The notes beneath the pieces were generated by a model. It saw only the letters and a list, made by a program, of their open reading frames with translations. It did not search any database and was not told where the DNA came from. From Pseudomonadota bacterium (GTDB lineage: Archaea > Thermoplasmatota > SW-10-69-26 > JACQPN01 > JAJPHT01), in contig JAJPHT010000023.1 in the NCBI GenBank assembly GCA_021325135.1, positions 1 to 41,529 on the forward strand: a DNA stretch of 41,529 nucleotides, given 5' to 3'. Shown piece by piece: positions 25,707 through 32,276 of this stretch (its first letter is position 1; every line of letters starts with the position of its first letter). A program made the translations under genes and the position numbers.

Positions 25707-26470
25707 GGCCAGACGCGGGCGCCCAGCCTGGCCCGGATCCACCCGGGGGGGCGGAAGGCCATGATCACGAGAAGGGGCGCCGCCAGGGCGATGAGGGAGT
25801 TCAAGGCCTGGAGGGCGGCGGAGTCCGGGTACTTCTGCTGGAGCTGGAGGATGGAGCTCACCGTCGACCAGCCGAACCACACGAGGAAGGAGCCGGCGAC
25901 GAGGGCGACGCGGAAGCGCTGCTCGCCGCCTTCGGTGCGGAAGAAGAGGGAGCCGTACCCCACCGCCGCCAGGACGACGGGCACCGAGAGGAGGAGCCCC
26001 AGCGCGATGGCGGGCGCGCCCACGAGCTGCCGCGTGTACTGCAGGGTCAGCGAGGGGGAGCTCTCGTCGTACCCCGTGGGCTGCATCCACGCGACGAGGT
26101 ACATGAGCGCGATGCCCAGCGCGACGTAAGCGCCCACGATGGGCCAGTAGGAGCGCGAGCTTCCGGTGTAAAGATAGACCAGGTAGTAGACGAGGGCGCC
26201 GATGGCGACGGCGATGAGGAAGAGGAGGACGTTGAGCAGCGTGATGACCATGGCGAGGTCGCGATAGCCGAACGCGGCGGGGATGCTGTACGCGCCCGCG
26301 AGGAACTCCACGGCTCCGAAGGCGCCCCACCAGAATGCGAAGGCGTGGTTGGCGCGCTGCGCGTCCGCGGAGGTCGGGCGGGCCAGGACGAGCCTTGCCA
26401 CGTAGGCGTAGAGCGCGCCGGTCGCCAGCGCGACGAGCCCCTGGACGGCAAGACGCAGGATGAACGCCAC
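25688..26470 (-). CDS. Polytopic (~7 TM) membrane protein of unknown function
   Basis: About seven hydrophobic helices from GTG 26470; C-terminal AFRPPGWIR. Confidence 0.75.
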   Translation of the reverse strand: MAFILRLAVQGLVALATGALYAYVARLVLARPTSADAQRANHAFAFWWGAFGAVEFLAGAYSIPAAFGYRDLAMVITLLNVLLFLIAVAIGALVYYLVYLYTGSSRSYWPIVGAYVALGIALMYLVAWMQPTGYDESSPSLTLQYTRQLVGAPAIALGLLLSVPVVLAAVGYGSLFFRTEGGEQRFRVALVAGSFLVWFGWSTVSSILQLQQKYPDSAALQALNSLIALAAPLLVIMAFRPPGWIRARLGARVWPQPPGT

Positions 26471-26594
26471 GTGCCTAGCCCACCCCTGGTTGGCTCCCAT
26501 CATGCTTGAACGCCTTGCTTCGGCCTCGGGGAGAGGGCCTCCGGAGCCTCCCGACACCCTCAAGTCCCCGGCCCGGCTTGCCCGCGCGACCAGC

Positions 26595-27959
26595 ATGGTG
26601 GACATCGAGATCCGGCCTGTGGGCGGATACAGCGACTTCGGTCGCAACATGACCTGCGTGCGCGTGGGTCGCGAGGCCGTGATCCTTGACATGGGCATCC
26701 GGCTCGATCGCATCCTGCTCGACGAGGAGAACGTCCTTGACGAGATGCACCCGGCGGACCTCCAGAAGCTGGGCGCGATCCCCGACGACACGGTCCTCAA
26801 GGACCTGGGCGCCAAGGTGGTGGCCATCGTCATCGGCCACGCGCACCTGGACCACGTGGGGGCCGTCTCCAAGCTCGCGGGGCACTTCCCCGACGCGCCC
26901 ATCTACGGCACGCCCTACACGATCCGCTTCATCGAGAACCAGACGACGGAGTTCCAGAAGGGGGGCAAGAAGCGCCGCCTCATCCCCAACCGCCTGGTGG
27001 AGACGGAGACGGGCCGCATCGTCAACCTCACCAAGGGCATCCGCCTGGAGCTCGTCCACGTCACGCACAGCATCGTGCAGAGCGCGTTCCCCGTGCTCCA
27101 CACCGACGCGGGCGCCATCGTGTACGCCGCGGACTACAAGTTCGACAACGCCCCGGTGATCGGCAAGCGCCCCGACTACCGCCGCCTCTCCAGCCTCGCC
27201 AACGAGGGCGTCGCCGCGCTCATCGTGGAGAGCACCAACGCGGGCAAGGAGACGAAGACGCCCAGCGAGACCATCGCCCGCGACATGCTCAAGGACTTCC
27301 TCTTCGGCGTCGAGAACGACCGCGCCGGCATCGTCGTCACCACCTTCAGCAGCCACATCGCGCGCCTCCAGAGCATCTGCGAGTTCGCCGACGAGATGGG
27401 CCGCACGCCGCTCCTCTTGGGCCGCAGCATGGACAAGTACACCAGCATCGCGCGCGACCTCAACCTCATCGACCTGCCCTCCAACGTGGAGATCGCGGGC
27501 CACTCCCGCGCCACGCAGGGCATCCTCAAGCGCATCGCCAAGGACCGCGACCAGTACGTGCTCATCGGCACGGGCCACCAGGGCGAGCCGGGCTCGTTCC
27601 TGCCGCGCCTCGCCAGCGGCGAGTTCCCCTTCGAGATCCAGAAGCACGACGAGGTCATCTTCAGCGCGAACACCATCCCGCACCCGCAGAACGTGGCCAA
27701 CCGCTACGTGCTGGAGACGAAGCTCAAGATGCGCGGCGCGCGCATCATCAAGGGCGCCCACGTCTCGGGCCACGCCAGCAAGGTCGACCACCAGGAATTG
27801 CTGCGCATGCTGGAGCCCTCGCACATCTTCCCCATGCACGGCGGCATCGACCTCCAGAGCGAGTTCGTGGAGCTGGCCACCGGCGAGGGCTACCGCCTCA
27901 ACGAGAGCGCGCACATCCTCCGCAACGGCGACCGGCACCGCCTCGGGGGCCGGGTTTGA
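26595..27959 (+). CDS. rnj: Ribonuclease J (beta-CASP metallo-beta-lactamase)
   Basis: GGYSDFGRNM, DMG, HAHLDHVG, THSI, DYKFD, ESTN, TTFSSHIAR, TGHQGEP, HVSGH, PMHG. Confidence 0.95.
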   Translation: MVDIEIRPVGGYSDFGRNMTCVRVGREAVILDMGIRLDRILLDEENVLDEMHPADLQKLGAIPDDTVLKDLGAKVVAIVIGHAHLDHVGAVSKLAGHFPDAPIYGTPYTIRFIENQTTEFQKGGKKRRLIPNRLVETETGRIVNLTKGIRLELVHVTHSIVQSAFPVLHTDAGAIVYAADYKFDNAPVIGKRPDYRRLSSLANEGVAALIVESTNAGKETKTPSETIARDMLKDFLFGVENDRAGIVVTTFSSHIARLQSICEFADEMGRTPLLLGRSMDKYTSIARDLNLIDLPSNVEIAGHSRATQGILKRIAKDRDQYVLIGTGHQGEPGSFLPRLASGEFPFEIQKHDEVIFSANTIPHPQNVANRYVLETKLKMRGARIIKGAHVSGHASKVDHQELLRMLEPSHIFPMHGGIDLQSEFVELATGEGYRLNESAHILRNGDRHRLGGRV

Positions 27960-28008
27960 GCATCGTCGGCGGCGGCGCCTCAGCGCGCGCCATCGGAGGA
28001 AGGTCCGG

Positions 28009-28983
28009 ATGATCGGGCTGGACTCGTATCGGAAGATCGTCGACCACGCCCTCCCCTCCTGCTTCGAAGGCATCCGCCCCCAGGCGCTCCACGACGCCAC
28101 CATGTGGTACCCCGAGGCGGGCGGCAAGCGGCTGCGCCCCGTCATGGCGCTCCTCGCCTGCGAGGCCTCCGGAGGGAGCGTCGAGGACGCGCTCCCCGTC
28201 GCGCTGGCCGTGGAATTGGTGCACAACTTCAGCCTCGTGCACGACGACATCATGGACCACGACGCGACGCGACGCGGCCGCGCGACCGTCCACACCCGGT
28301 GGGACGAGGCGACGGCCATCCTCGCGGGGGACGTGCTCTTCGCGCGCGCCTTCGAGGTGCTCGCCCGCATCCCCGACCCCGCCGCGCACCAGGAGGCCAG
28401 CCGGCTCCTCAGCGTCGCCATCCGCCGCCTCTGCGAAGGGCAGGCCATGGACGTCGCCTTCGAGAAGCGCAAGGACGTCACCACCGCGGAGTACCTCGAC
28501 ATGATCGGCGGCAAGACCGCCGTCCTCTTCGCCGCCGCGTGCCACGGGGGCGCCCTCAGCGCGAAGCGCACCAACCGCGCGGCCATCGAGGCGCTGGACC
28601 GCTTCGGCGACGCGTTCGGCATGGCGTTCCAGATCGCCGACGACCTGCTGGACGTCACCGCGGACAGCCAGACCATGGGCAAGCCGTGGGGCAGCGACGT
28701 GCGCGCCGGCAAGCAGACCGTCCTCGTGCTGGAGGCGCTCGCGCGCGCGGACGCCGCGCAGCGCCGCGCGCTGGACGCCGCGCTGGGCAACCCCAAGGCG
28801 ACCGACGAGGAGGTGCGCCGCGCGGTGGACGCCATGCGCGCCAGCGGCGCCCTCGCCGCGGCCGAGGCGCTGCGCGACCGCCACGCTCAGGCCGCCGCCG
28901 ACGCCATCGCGCCCCTGGCGGAGACGCCCGCGAAGCGCGCGCTCCTCTCCCTCAACGAGTGGGCCCGGACGCGCTCGTACTGA
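28009..28983 (+). CDS. idsA: Geranylgeranyl diphosphate synthase (archaeal type I polyprenyl synthase)
   Basis: GGKRLRP, FARM FSLVHDDIMD with Phe at -5, RRG, GQAMD, KT, SARM FQIADDLLD; rnj-idsA adjacency is typical of archaea. Confidence 0.92.
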   Translation: MIGLDSYRKIVDHALPSCFEGIRPQALHDATMWYPEAGGKRLRPVMALLACEASGGSVEDALPVALAVELVHNFSLVHDDIMDHDATRRGRATVHTRWDEATAILAGDVLFARAFEVLARIPDPAAHQEASRLLSVAIRRLCEGQAMDVAFEKRKDVTTAEYLDMIGGKTAVLFAAACHGGALSAKRTNRAAIEALDRFGDAFGMAFQIADDLLDVTADSQTMGKPWGSDVRAGKQTVLVLEALARADAAQRRALDAALGNPKATDEEVRRAVDAMRASGALAAAEALRDRHAQAAADAIAPLAETPAKRALLSLNEWARTRSY

Positions 28984-28984
28984 G

Positions 28985-29461
28985 CTAAAGCCGCTGCCCC
29001 TCGATGGTGGCGCCCGCTTCCAGGTAGACCGCGACGAAGGAGCCCGCGGAGCCGGTGGTCCAGCGCACCTGCATCCGGAAGTCGCTGCTGCTCTGCGGCA
29101 CGGCCAGCGGGAAGATGCACTCGGTGCGGGCGGGCGAGGTGGGCTCGCACGCGGCGCTCAGCAGCGTCTTCTTCGTCACCACGTTGTCCAGGAAGAAGCT
29201 CGCGTTGGCGTGCCCCACGATCTCGACGCGCACCCAGTGGGCGTTCTGCCCCGGGCCCTCGACGACGCACGAGTTGAACGTGTCCGTGAAGCAGTCCGTC
29301 GAGCCGGGCTCGGTGTAGAGCACCGAGTAGTAGAGGATGGGATCGAAGTTGAGCTTGCCCTGCTCCGGGCTCTTCCAGGTGAACAGCATCGGCGGCTGCG
29401 CCGAGCCCACGGGCAGCATGGCGACCGCCAGCAGGAGCACCAGGCACGCGCGTCCCATCAT
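28985..29461 (-). CDS. Secreted hypothetical protein (Cys pairs, beta-rich)
   Basis: GGAGGGTG SD, signal peptide ...PVGSA, four Cys in the mature part. Confidence 0.7.
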   Translation of the reverse strand: MMGRACLVLLLAVAMLPVGSAQPPMLFTWKSPEQGKLNFDPILYYSVLYTEPGSTDCFTDTFNSCVVEGPGQNAHWVRVEIVGHANASFFLDNVVTKKTLLSAACEPTSPARTECIFPLAVPQSSSDFRMQVRWTTGSAGSFVAVYLEAGATIEGQRL

Positions 29462-29860: not shown

Positions 29861-30358
29861 TCAGTCGAACTGCGTCGGGTCCTTGAGGTACGCGATGTTG
29901 TCCAGCGCGACCTCGCACGACTCGCGGACCTCGCGCGCGGGGTCGTCGCGCTTGGCGCGCTCCAGCACGGGGATCACCTTGTCGGTGGCGTCCCACATGT
30001 TGCCCAGCGCCTCGGCGGCCTCGTGGCGCACCATGGGGGAGGGGTCCTCCTGGAGCTGGCGCACGAGGTGGGGGATGGCCTTGCTGCCCTGGAGCTGGCC
30101 CAGCACGTAGGCGGCCTCGTGGCGCACCAGGGCGCTCTCGTCCTCGAACATGGCCCGGGCGATGACGCGGATGGCCTCCTCGCTGCCCTCGTGGCGCAGG
30201 CTGAAGAGGGCGCGATAGCGCTGGAACATGGAGAGGCTCGTGTTGAAGAGGCGCGCCTCCAGCTCGGGCACGGTGGTCTCGGGCGCCAGGGGCGCGGGGT
30301 CCACCGTCTCGAACTCGCTGGAGTGCCCGGGGCTCGCGGGCTGCGGCTGCTGGGACAT
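29861..30358 (-). CDS. Half-size deoxyhypusine hydroxylase (DOHH)-like HEAT-repeat protein
   Basis: VDPAP, FQRYRALFSLR, SALVRHEAAYVLGQLQ, PMVRHEAAEALG, VRESCEVALD are collinear with the C-terminal half of eukaryotic DOHH. Own promoter-like gttgaag ~26 nt upstream. Confidence 0.85.
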   Translation of the reverse strand: MSQQPQPASPGHSSEFETVDPAPLAPETTVPELEARLFNTSLSMFQRYRALFSLRHEGSEEAIRVIARAMFEDESALVRHEAAYVLGQLQGSKAIPHLVRQLQEDPSPMVRHEAAEALGNMWDATDKVIPVLERAKRDDPAREVRESCEVALDNIAYLKDPTQFD

Positions 30359-30440
30359 GGAGCGCGCCACACGGGGGCCCCGTCTTCAACCCATCGGCGG
30401 TCCCATCACGTTGAAGCGCGGGCCCCCGCATCGCGGCGCC

Positions 30441-32276
30441 GTGGCCCCCGCCCGCGTCGTGAGCGCCCCCGCGTCGGGGCACGCGTACATGCGGGACCTG
30501 CTGGCGACGAGCCTGCTGGCGGCCGGGGTGGGCGCGCTCACGGGGCTCGTGGCGGTGGGCGTGCGGCTGGCCATCGCGTTCGTGACGAACCTGGCCTTCC
30601 GCGGGCAGGTCGACCTCGTCTTCCACAGCCCGGCGGAGAACGGCCTGGGCCTCTGGCTCGTCGTCGTGCCCGCCGCGGGCGCGCTCCTGGCGTACCTCGT
30701 CGTGCGCTTCGTCGCGCGGGACCACCGCATCCGCGGCTCCAGCGAGATCGTGCGCAGCGTGGCCGTGCAGCGGGGCGAGGTCTCGCCCGTGCGCCTCGCG
30801 GGGCACGCCACGGCCACCATCGTCTCGGTGGGCGCGGGCGGCAGCGCGGGGCGCGAGGGCGCCATGGTGCAGCTTGGCGCCGCGCTGGGCATGGTGGCCA
30901 GCCGCGTCATCGGCGCCTCCACGCGCCACCGCAAGCTCCTCCTCGCCGCGGGCGGAGGCGCGGCCATCGGCGCGACGTTCAACACGCCCATCGCGGGCGT
31001 CATCTTCGCCATGGAGGTCATCCTCCTGGAGTGGAGCACGCGCGCCTTCATCCCCCTCGTCGTGGCCAGCGCCATGGGCACGCTGGTCGCGACGAGCTTC
31101 CTGGGCAGCGAGCCCGCGTTCCCCATCCCGCGCTACGAGCTGGTCTCGGGCCGCGAGCTGTTCCTCTACATCCTCCTGGGCGTGCTGGCGGGCCTCCTCG
31201 CCATCGCGCTCTCGCGCATCCTGGCCTACAGCGACGCCCTCTTCGCCAGCGTGCCCGGCCCCGAGTGGATCGCCCACGTCTGGGGCGGCCTCCTCCTGGG
31301 CATCATCGGCCTCGCCGCGCCGCGCGTGCTGGGCGTCGGCTACGAGACGGTGGAGCCCGTGCTCAGCGGCGACTTCGTCGTGACGGGCCTGGCGCTTCTC
31401 CTCGTGGCGAAGCTCTTCGCCTACGCCATCACGCGCGGCTCCACCGGCTCCAGCGGCGCGTTCTCGCCCAGCTTCTTCCTGGGCAGCGCGCTGGGCGGCA
31501 TCTTCGGCGCGCTCGCGCACCTCGCCTTCCCCGACTGGACGGGCACGGCGGGCGCCTACGCCCTCGTGGGCATGGCCGCCGTGTACGCCGCCATCACGCG
31601 CGCCTCGCTCACGGCGCTGGTCATGCTCTACGAGATGACGCACACGTTCAGCATCATCATCCCCCTCATGCTGGCCATCGTCGTCGCGGACGCGCTATCA
31701 AAAGCCTACGGCGCGCCGGCGTACTTCCGCGGCGGCAAGGCGGGCGAGCGCAGCCTGGAGGCGGACGCCAGCGCGAACATCCTCGACCTCGTGGCCGTGG
31801 GCGACATCATGTCGAAGCCCGTGGAGACGGTGCGCGACGACGCGCCCGTGCGCAGCGTGGTGGAGAAGCGCTTCGCCACGGGCCACCAGGGCTACCCCGT
31901 CGTGGACGCGGAGGGGCGCCTCGTCGGCATCGTCACCAGCACCGACATGCGCCGCAAGGTCACGGACACCGACCTGGACCGCCCCGTGCGCGAGTTCATG
32001 ACGCCCGACCCCGCGACGGTGCTCCCCGACGCTACCGCGCACGAGGCGTTGACCGAGATGGTGCGCCTCGACGTGGGCCACCTGCCGGTGGTGGAGCGCC
32101 GCGATCCGCGCCGCCTCGTGGGCATGCTCACACGCACGGACCTCGTGGGCGTCGAGCGGCGCCGCCTCGCCGAGGAGGAGCCTGCGGAGCCCCTCATCAC
32201 GCCGCGCACGTTCCGCGAGCGCGTCAAGGAGGCGCGCGACCGCATGCGCCGGGGCCGGGAGCGCGCGGAGGACTAA
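30441..32276 (+). CDS. CLC chloride channel/antiporter with C-terminal CBS pair
   Basis: GGSAGREG, ATFNTPIAGVIFA.E, LVGMAA, YEMT, then two CBS domains. Start GTG 30441 (alternative ATG 30489). Confidence 0.92.
   Translation: MAPARVVSAPASGHAYMRDLLATSLLAAGVGALTGLVAVGVRLAIAFVTNLAFRGQVDLVFHSPAENGLGLWLVVVPAAGALLAYLVVRFVARDHRIRGSSEIVRSVAVQRGEVSPVRLAGHATATIVSVGAGGSAGREGAMVQLGAALGMVASRVIGASTRHRKLLLAAGGGAAIGATFNTPIAGVIFAMEVILLEWSTRAFIPLVVASAMGTLVATSFLGSEPAFPIPRYELVSGRELFLYILLGVLAGLLAIALSRILAYSDALFASVPGPEWIAHVWGGLLLGIIGLAAPRVLGVGYETVEPVLSGDFVVTGLALLLVAKLFAYAITRGSTGSSGAFSPSFFLGSALGGIFGALAHLAFPDWTGTAGAYALVGMAAVYAAITRASLTALVMLYEMTHTFSIIIPLMLAIVVADALSKAYGAPAYFRGGKAGERSLEADASANILDLVAVGDIMSKPVETVRDDAPVRSVVEKRFATGHQGYPVVDAEGRLVGIVTSTDMRRKVTDTDLDRPVREFMTPDPATVLPDATAHEALTEMVRLDVGHLPVVERRDPRRLVGMLTRTDLVGVERRRLAEEEPAEPLITPRTFRERVKEARDRMRRGRERAED

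Follow-up and report, generated by a model that had tools for sequence, protein, structure and literature searches.

How might an aerobic archaeon hydroxylate the deoxyhypusine of its translation factor aIF5A? No archaeal ortholog of the eukaryotic deoxyhypusine hydroxylase (DOHH) is known, and archaeal deoxyhypusine hydroxylation has been treated as unsolved (PMC5178350, 2016; PMC6105217, 2018; PMC8153317, 2021). The question is raised anew by contig JAJPHT010000023.1 of assembly GCA_021325135.1, the whole of which (41,529 bp) was analyzed here and is called the window below. It carries a short gene whose product, P0001, an earlier note on this DNA had read as a half-size, homodimer-forming DOHH. 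Sequence comparison and structure prediction support that reading, and each refuting condition given in the note that could be checked by computation turned out in its favor: P0001 is probably a half-size, homodimeric form of a known enzyme, in a domain said to be without it. We consider it likely that the gene encodes a single-lobe DOHH ortholog, which would act as a homodimeric di-iron enzyme hydroxylating deoxyhypusine-aIF5A. In the literature on DOHH and hypusine in Thermoplasmatota, Asgard archaea or Poseidoniales, and on K06072, we found no description of a half-size DOHH.

The half-size DOHH gene

The coding sequence lies on the minus strand:

29861..30358 (stop included), minus strand: half-size DOHH homolog P0001, four HEAT repeats and an N-terminal tail

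The open reading frame (ORF) runs from an ATG at 30358 to a TGA at 29861-29863 and encodes 165 aa; an alternative in-frame GTG start at 30370, four codons 5' of the ATG, would give 169 aa. All motif strings that the earlier note had quoted from the ORF are present in the minus-strand translation, and those it had given for the C-terminal half of human DOHH (SVDPAP, LFERYRAMFALR, FRHEVGYVLGQLQ, MVRHECAEALG, VRESCEVALD) all stand opposite the ORF when phmmer aligns it with the human structure 4d4z.

The ORF is a genuine, genome-native gene under purifying selection, because its G+C content at third codon positions (GC3 = 0.99) matches the genome (72% G+C, as in the window), its ratio of nonsynonymous to synonymous substitution rates (dN/dS) is 0.18-0.46 against four same-genus orthologs, and about 290 database relatives of the protein exist. 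The genome assembly has 3.77 Mb in 51 contigs, with 94% completeness and 5.6% contamination; an archaeal small-subunit rRNA gene was not found in these 51 contigs despite that completeness.

Homology to DOHH rather than to generic HEAT proteins

The human DOHH structure 4d4z is the best match to P0001 in the Protein Data Bank (PDB; phmmer, E 2.8e-54), and P0001 aligns to both of its lobes, to residues 16-138 at 83 bits and to residues 147-284 at 104 bits. Designed consensus alphaRep proteins rank after it, because they contain many repeats, and the first natural non-DOHH protein has an E-value of only about 1e-3. The AlphaFold (AF2) monomer model of P0001, with a predicted local distance difference test score (pLDDT) of 91.3, likewise has 4d4z as its top Foldseek match, at 45% identity.

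A search of 5.8 billion proteins found about 100 proteins of 153-192 aa that are 50-87% identical to P0001. Close relatives are named 'HEAT repeat domain-containing protein [Thermoplasmatota archaeon]' by NCBI and 'deoxyhypusine monooxygenase' by JGI. The nearest named relatives outside this half-size family are eukaryotic DOHHs, at 40-53% identity, which is as close as the DOHHs of Leishmania and human are to each other (40.6%; PMC3306375). Conversely, of 199 full-length DOHHs, 194 are recognized in both halves by a profile hidden Markov model (HMM) of the half-size family.

The matches of P0001 in Pfam and NCBIfam are confined to generic HEAT families (Pfam HEAT_2, HEAT_PBS and HEAT_EZ). The generic naming arises because neither library returned a DOHH-specific model, and not because the sequence has diverged; the NCBIfam lyase and NblB models score far under their cut-offs (23 bits for NblB, against a cut-off of 300). 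Proteins of the HEAT_2/PBS-lyase kind (E. coli YibA 1OYZ, CpcE/F, NblB, archaeal MTH187, alphaRep) share the repeat type with P0001, but they are without the paired His-Glu motifs and match it far less well (E 7e-3 for YibA, 4e-3 for CpcE). Eukaryotic DOHH (human 4D4Z/4D50, yeast Lia1; EC 1.14.99.29), in contrast, has both the HEAT-repeat fold and the His-Glu motifs in the same contexts (RHExxYxLGQ, MVRHExxEALG, VRESCEVALD), with 45-53% identity between its C-lobes and P0001. By sequence search and fold match, then, P0001 groups with DOHH, and the half-size protein is a specific DOHH homolog rather than a generic HEAT protein.

Half size and single copy

A eukaryotic DOHH is a two-lobed chain of about 300 aa, with eight HEAT repeats and four His-Glu motifs; P0001, at 165 aa, is a single lobe with four of the repeats and two of the motifs. 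A missing half might be encoded elsewhere, or might have been lost from a damaged gene. The earlier note had remarked that no N-terminal half lies next to the gene; this holds, and the HMM searches extend it to the whole genome. A protein search with P0001 found one DOHH-like ORF in the genome. The half-size family HMM found the P0001 ORF at 2e-82, with the next match at 0.059, and an HMM of eukaryotic N-halves matched the P0001 ORF at 5e-42 and nothing else. No second DOHH-like ORF, and no separately encoded N-half, was thus found by these three query types in a 94%-complete genome, so that an N-half hidden in an assembly gap is still conceivable.

Relatives are uniformly half-size. At 30 of 30 loci examined in other genomes, the reading frame closes no more than 0-8 residues past the match, and in low-GC genomes there is a stop 5-12 codons upstream of it; a truncated or split gene is ruled out by these closed frames on both sides. 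Named relatives of about 300 aa are all eukaryotic. A full-length prokaryotic DOHH was considered for one 291-aa metagenomic protein (P0229, on a 26-kb contig) and rejected; this protein is eukaryotic, because its gene sits among HSP90, PTPA and TPT genes. The DOHH homolog of the window is genuinely half-size and single-copy.

Conserved motifs

Three short motifs of P0001 are central to the comparison with the eukaryotic enzyme:

30116..30121, minus strand: first His-Glu motif, H80-E81 in RHEAAYVLGQ; the same in all 46 aligned family members, and conserved in the N- and C-halves of eukaryotic DOHH
30020..30025, minus strand: second His-Glu motif, H112-E113 in PMVRHEAAEALG; likewise without variation among the 46
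30290..30304, minus strand: N-terminal tail motif VDPAP, residues 19-23; D20 and P21 invariant, aligned to human SVDPAP

The first His-Glu motif aligns with what we take to be H56-E57 and H207-E208 of the human enzyme, and the second with what are presumably H89-E90 and H240-E241. The positions invariant in the 46-member alignment are H80-E81, G87-Q88, M109-V110-R111-H112-E113, E116, G119, S147-C148 and D20-P21. VDPAP aligns with the inter-lobe linker of eukaryotic DOHH; eukaryotic C-halves conserve its D, P, A and P, and N-halves have a gap here.

We divided 30 diverse full-length DOHHs into their halves and checked the positions conserved in these against the archaeal consensus. It has the same residue at 20/20 positions that both halves conserve, at 23/24 that only C-halves conserve and at 5/5 that only N-halves conserve, or 48 of 49 in all. 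At sites that discriminate between the halves it is mixed, with S147 and V150 of the C type and E143 and A120 of the N type. Conservation of both halves' positions is the pattern expected if one subunit plays the roles of both lobes. Among the in silico results, the 48 retained positions argue most strongly for the same substrate as that of eukaryotic DOHH.

A predicted homodimer and a proposed mechanism

Since P0001 is one lobe with two His-Glu motifs, a di-iron site would need a homodimer. The earlier note had proposed that two copies could dimerize, and the structure prediction is in line with this: two P0001 chains with two Fe are predicted to form a symmetric dimer, well above controls, with H80, M109 and H112 at the interface. 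The interface score ipSAE is 0.90, against 0.01 for the best of three controls, although the score may reflect memory, because the solved human structure 4d4z has the same lobe-lobe arrangement in one chain. When the score was calibrated on solved proteins, that mark was attained by 20 of 30 whose structures are pairs of one chain and by 1 of the 23 with single-chain structures. Contact agreement among the dimer runs was at least 87%, and the partner pLDDT was at least 86. Besides the three residues named, the predicted interface takes in the C-terminus, E143, S147 and, at residues 12-24, the VDPAP tail; M109 and H112 touch the opposite subunit.

In the mechanism that we propose, two identical subunits would pair head to head about a two-fold axis, so that their four His-Glu motifs face each other and bind a di-iron centre. 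This pairing would be the arrangement that the N- and C-lobes take within one chain of eukaryotic DOHH, and the N-terminal VDPAP tail of each subunit would pack on its partner as the eukaryotic inter-lobe linker does. With O2, we infer, the di-iron site would hydroxylate the deoxyhypusine built by deoxyhypusine synthase (DHS) on the lysine of the aIF5A GKHG loop, yielding hypusine. In human DOHH, a peroxo-diferric species of long lifetime is formed.

The substrate pathway, aerobic respiration and distribution

The genes for the proposed substrate are in the genome, which was one of the checks that the earlier note had named. A canonical DHS is encoded on contig C33 (270 bits to 8put), and aIF5A, with the loop SKPGKHGAAKA containing the GKHG lysine, was found with TIGR00037. 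A search with PF01287 did not find aIF5A in the genome; this model is insensitive here, because it missed the Haloferax control too. A second, divergent DHS-like gene (L003, contig C39:58093-58983, minus strand) was also seen, which scores 284 bits against Pfam DS and no more than 104 bits against its best PDB DHS, 7cmc; its product may be a regulatory subunit, or else an enzyme akin to homospermidine synthase. Two terminal oxidases are encoded as well, with two full genes for heme-copper oxidase subunit I (COX1).

We examined distribution in 401 genomes sampled from the Thermoplasmatota, the phylum of this organism, grouped in families coded f1, f3 and so on. Half-size DOHH relatives occur in 108 of these genomes, almost always one per genome, with high occupancy in some families (f28, 52/58; f30, 18/19; f11, 22/36; f1, 6/8; f3, 3/3). 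Every family with half-size DOHH also has COX1, and in families f7, f8, f18 and f20 neither COX1 nor half-size DOHH was found in any of 139 genomes. Half-size DOHH was not found in the COX1-bearing families f23, f24, f25 and f34. With the presence of DHS and aIF5A, the two COX1 genes and the restriction to COX1-bearing families are circumstantial evidence for an O2-dependent di-iron hydroxylation of deoxyhypusine. Some atypical copies were noted. In two Poseidoniales-type genomes, copies that are possible pseudogenes or assembly errors have in-frame stops (G266:C122:4347-4784, with one TAG and one TAA; G242:C36:95393-95821, with one TGA), and in a third genome, G356, each of two contigs carries a full copy.

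The best 80 of 387 matches in GTDB all bear archaeal labels, mostly Thermoplasmatota or Poseidoniales (the lineage names of relatives used here are record labels). The closest of these 80, at 90% identity, is 'Thermoplasmata archaeon BP_742'; the other 79 are mostly labeled Thermoplasmatota, Poseidoniales, Poseidoniaceae, Thalassarchaeaceae or generic Methanobacteriota/Euryarchaeota archaeon. The half-size homologs of Marine Group II/III (Poseidoniales), to which automatic annotation at JGI gives the name 'deoxyhypusine monooxygenase', share 45-54% identity, length and the invariant residues with P0001; they differ from it by small indels, and P0001 does not lie beside menaquinone genes. P0001 belongs to a separate high-GC clade (f1-f6, f33 and f47), which is not assigned to Poseidoniales.

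Evolutionary origin

The earlier note had suggested that the half-size protein might be the pre-duplication form of DOHH. For a maximum likelihood (ML) tree we aligned archaeal halves with eukaryotic N- and C-halves (81 rows; LG+C20 with posterior mean site frequencies, PMSF). The eukaryotic N-halves fall on one side of a branch with support 99/97 and the C-halves with 95/84, and the archaeal halves are nested in neither. The free ML tree divides the archaeal halves into two groups (98/84), but this split is not upheld by the approximately unbiased (AU) test: constraining the archaeal halves to stand together gave a log-likelihood 4.09 higher than that of the free tree (p-AU 0.557). Because the constrained tree is more likely, we recognize three clades, archaeal, eukaryotic N and eukaryotic C. 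Rooting was attempted with eight generic HEAT segments, none of which has an HE motif, and gave support of 26 with a long-branch warning. The trees neither back nor oppose pre-duplication ancestry.

Two histories have to be weighed. One is secondary truncation: a full-length DOHH acquired from a stem or early eukaryote would have been cut back to the linker and C-lobe, the present archaeal half, and would have become a homodimer again; we judge the probability of this history to lie just short of even. Consistent with it, the half-size family HMM scores the C-half above the N-half in 192 of 194 full-length DOHHs (159 vs 127 bits), sequence identity to eukaryotic C-halves reaches the level seen within eukaryotes, the VDPAP tail matches the eukaryotic inter-lobe linker, S147 and V150 are of the C type, and only some lineages of a single archaeal phylum have the gene, as far as the 401 phylum genomes and the best 80 of 387 GTDB matches go. 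The archaeal halves are not, however, nested in the eukaryotic C-halves (95/84), nor does any eukaryotic group stand out as closest. E143 and A120 are of the N type, and what either eukaryotic half conserves is retained in the archaeal consensus. Median path lengths place the archaeal clade nearer to the C-halves (2.89) and to the N-halves (3.59) than these are to each other (4.13). Prokaryotic DOHHs of full length were not encountered; P0229, the single candidate that we checked, is eukaryotic.

The other history, which we put forward tentatively, is that the single-lobe archaeal protein is DOHH as it was before the duplication. It would already have hypusinated aIF5A as a homodimer in aerobic Thermoplasmatota-like archaea; the eukaryotic stem would then have acquired, duplicated and fused it, with the N-lobe diverging faster. 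Both a pre-duplication relic and an ancient truncation to linker and C-lobe are possible.

Contrary evidence and alternative functions

Several points weigh against a DOHH function for P0001. First, if the dimer prediction is a memory of 4d4z, as it may be, it shows likeness and not proven binding. Second, hypusine-containing Crenarchaea such as Sulfolobus have no DOHH homolog (PMC5178350, PMC6105217), so that hypusine can be made in archaea without a DOHH-like gene, by at least one further route. Third, early amino-acid analyses of 'thermoplasmales' found deoxyhypusine and little or no hypusine (PMC5178350); to this it might be answered that several aerobic families of the phylum carry COX1 without half-size DOHH. 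Fourth, in Poseidoniales (Marine Group II) the half-size gene starts at the base after the stop codon of an MqnA/D-family (PF02621) gene, which might suggest a substrate other than aIF5A.

This last point leads to the alternative that P0001 is a homodimeric di-iron HEAT oxygenase acting on some other substrate, for example a quinone or polyprenyl intermediate, which we think improbable. In the Poseidoniales loci a second PF02621 gene and an MqnC/E-like radical S-adenosylmethionine (SAM) gene adjoin the half-size gene, and in the window a polyprenyl synthase lies two genes from it. But both PF02621 genes of this genome are on another contig, and the neighborhood of the half-size gene is conserved within the genus only and differs in other lineages. 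The occurrence of the two genes also diverges: in family f30 half-size DOHH is present in 18/19 genomes and PF02621 in 0/19, in f6 the counts are 2/6 and 0/6, and in f34 PF02621 is present in many genomes and half-size DOHH was not found in any. Because the genes are unlinked here and the counts in f30, f6 and f34 are discordant, half-size DOHH is not tied to the futalosine pathway, and a menaquinone-pathway role was rejected as a general explanation on the same two grounds. Retention of 48 of the 49 positions conserved in eukaryotic DOHH also argues for the DOHH substrate. The futalosine pathway, moreover, is not known to need an O2-dependent hydroxylation, which weighs against this alternative. 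In the Poseidoniales loci (L107:5119-8468, L045 and L048) the second MqnA/D gene and the radical-SAM gene are on the opposite strand, with priS nearby; the synteny with MqnA/D is lineage-specific and not common to the clade of the window.

It is very unlikely that P0001 is a non-catalytic HEAT protein, such as an aIF5A- or DHS-binding factor or a metal-binding scaffold without hydroxylation, as its purely generic Pfam and NCBIfam matches and the NCBI name of its relatives (HEAT repeat protein) might suggest, since both His-Glu motifs and the flanking M-V-R and G-Q are invariant across orders, the gene is restricted to oxidase-bearing families, and the generic name reflects absent DOHH-specific models.

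Promoter-like box and gene neighborhood

The surroundings of the half-size DOHH gene in the window are as follows:

26460-28983, plus strand: archaeal RNase J-type beta-CASP nuclease, then polyprenyl synthase (geranylgeranyl diphosphate, GGPP, type)
28985-29461, minus strand: 158-aa ORF, directly downstream of the half-size DOHH gene on the same strand
30382..30390, minus strand: promoter-like GTTGAAGAC box, read from the sequence, about 24-32 nt upstream of the ATG
30486-32276: ClC/CBS channel gene

The gene order ClC channel, half-size DOHH, 158-aa ORF, polyprenyl synthase, RNase J is the one kept within the genus. The 158-aa ORF has a hydrophobic, signal-like N-terminus and matched no Pfam family; identity to its counterpart in L034, the nearest relative within the genus, is only about 40%, and the loci of the other relatives gave no match to it.

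The earlier note had also given the half-size gene a promoter-like box of its own. Such a box, GTTGAAGA(C), does lie 24-32 nt upstream, in the divergent intergenic region between this gene and the ClC channel gene; of four relatives in the genus, L036 and L037 have the GTTGAAGA box in the same place and L034 has a variant of it. Although no canonical TATA box, it is plausible as the promoter of the gene. The same intergenic region contains a 7-bp inverted repeat, CTTCAAC ... GTTGAAG (30384-30390 and 30410-30416), with arms 19 nt apart, one of which is the promoter-like box; this repeat may be due to chance.

Biological significance

The half-size family provides a concrete candidate for deoxyhypusine hydroxylation in aerobic archaea, namely Marine Group II/III and the high-GC clade, which make up a large and ecologically important set. 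It leaves unexplained the case of Sulfolobus, with hypusine and no DOHH homolog. As a natural minimal version of a pseudo-symmetric di-iron enzyme, the half-size protein would inform how a di-iron site is assembled from HEAT repeats and how a two-lobe enzyme originates. If it is indeed the pre-duplication form, the hydroxylation of hypusine would have an archaeal origin, and these archaea would hold a living model of the ancestral enzyme.
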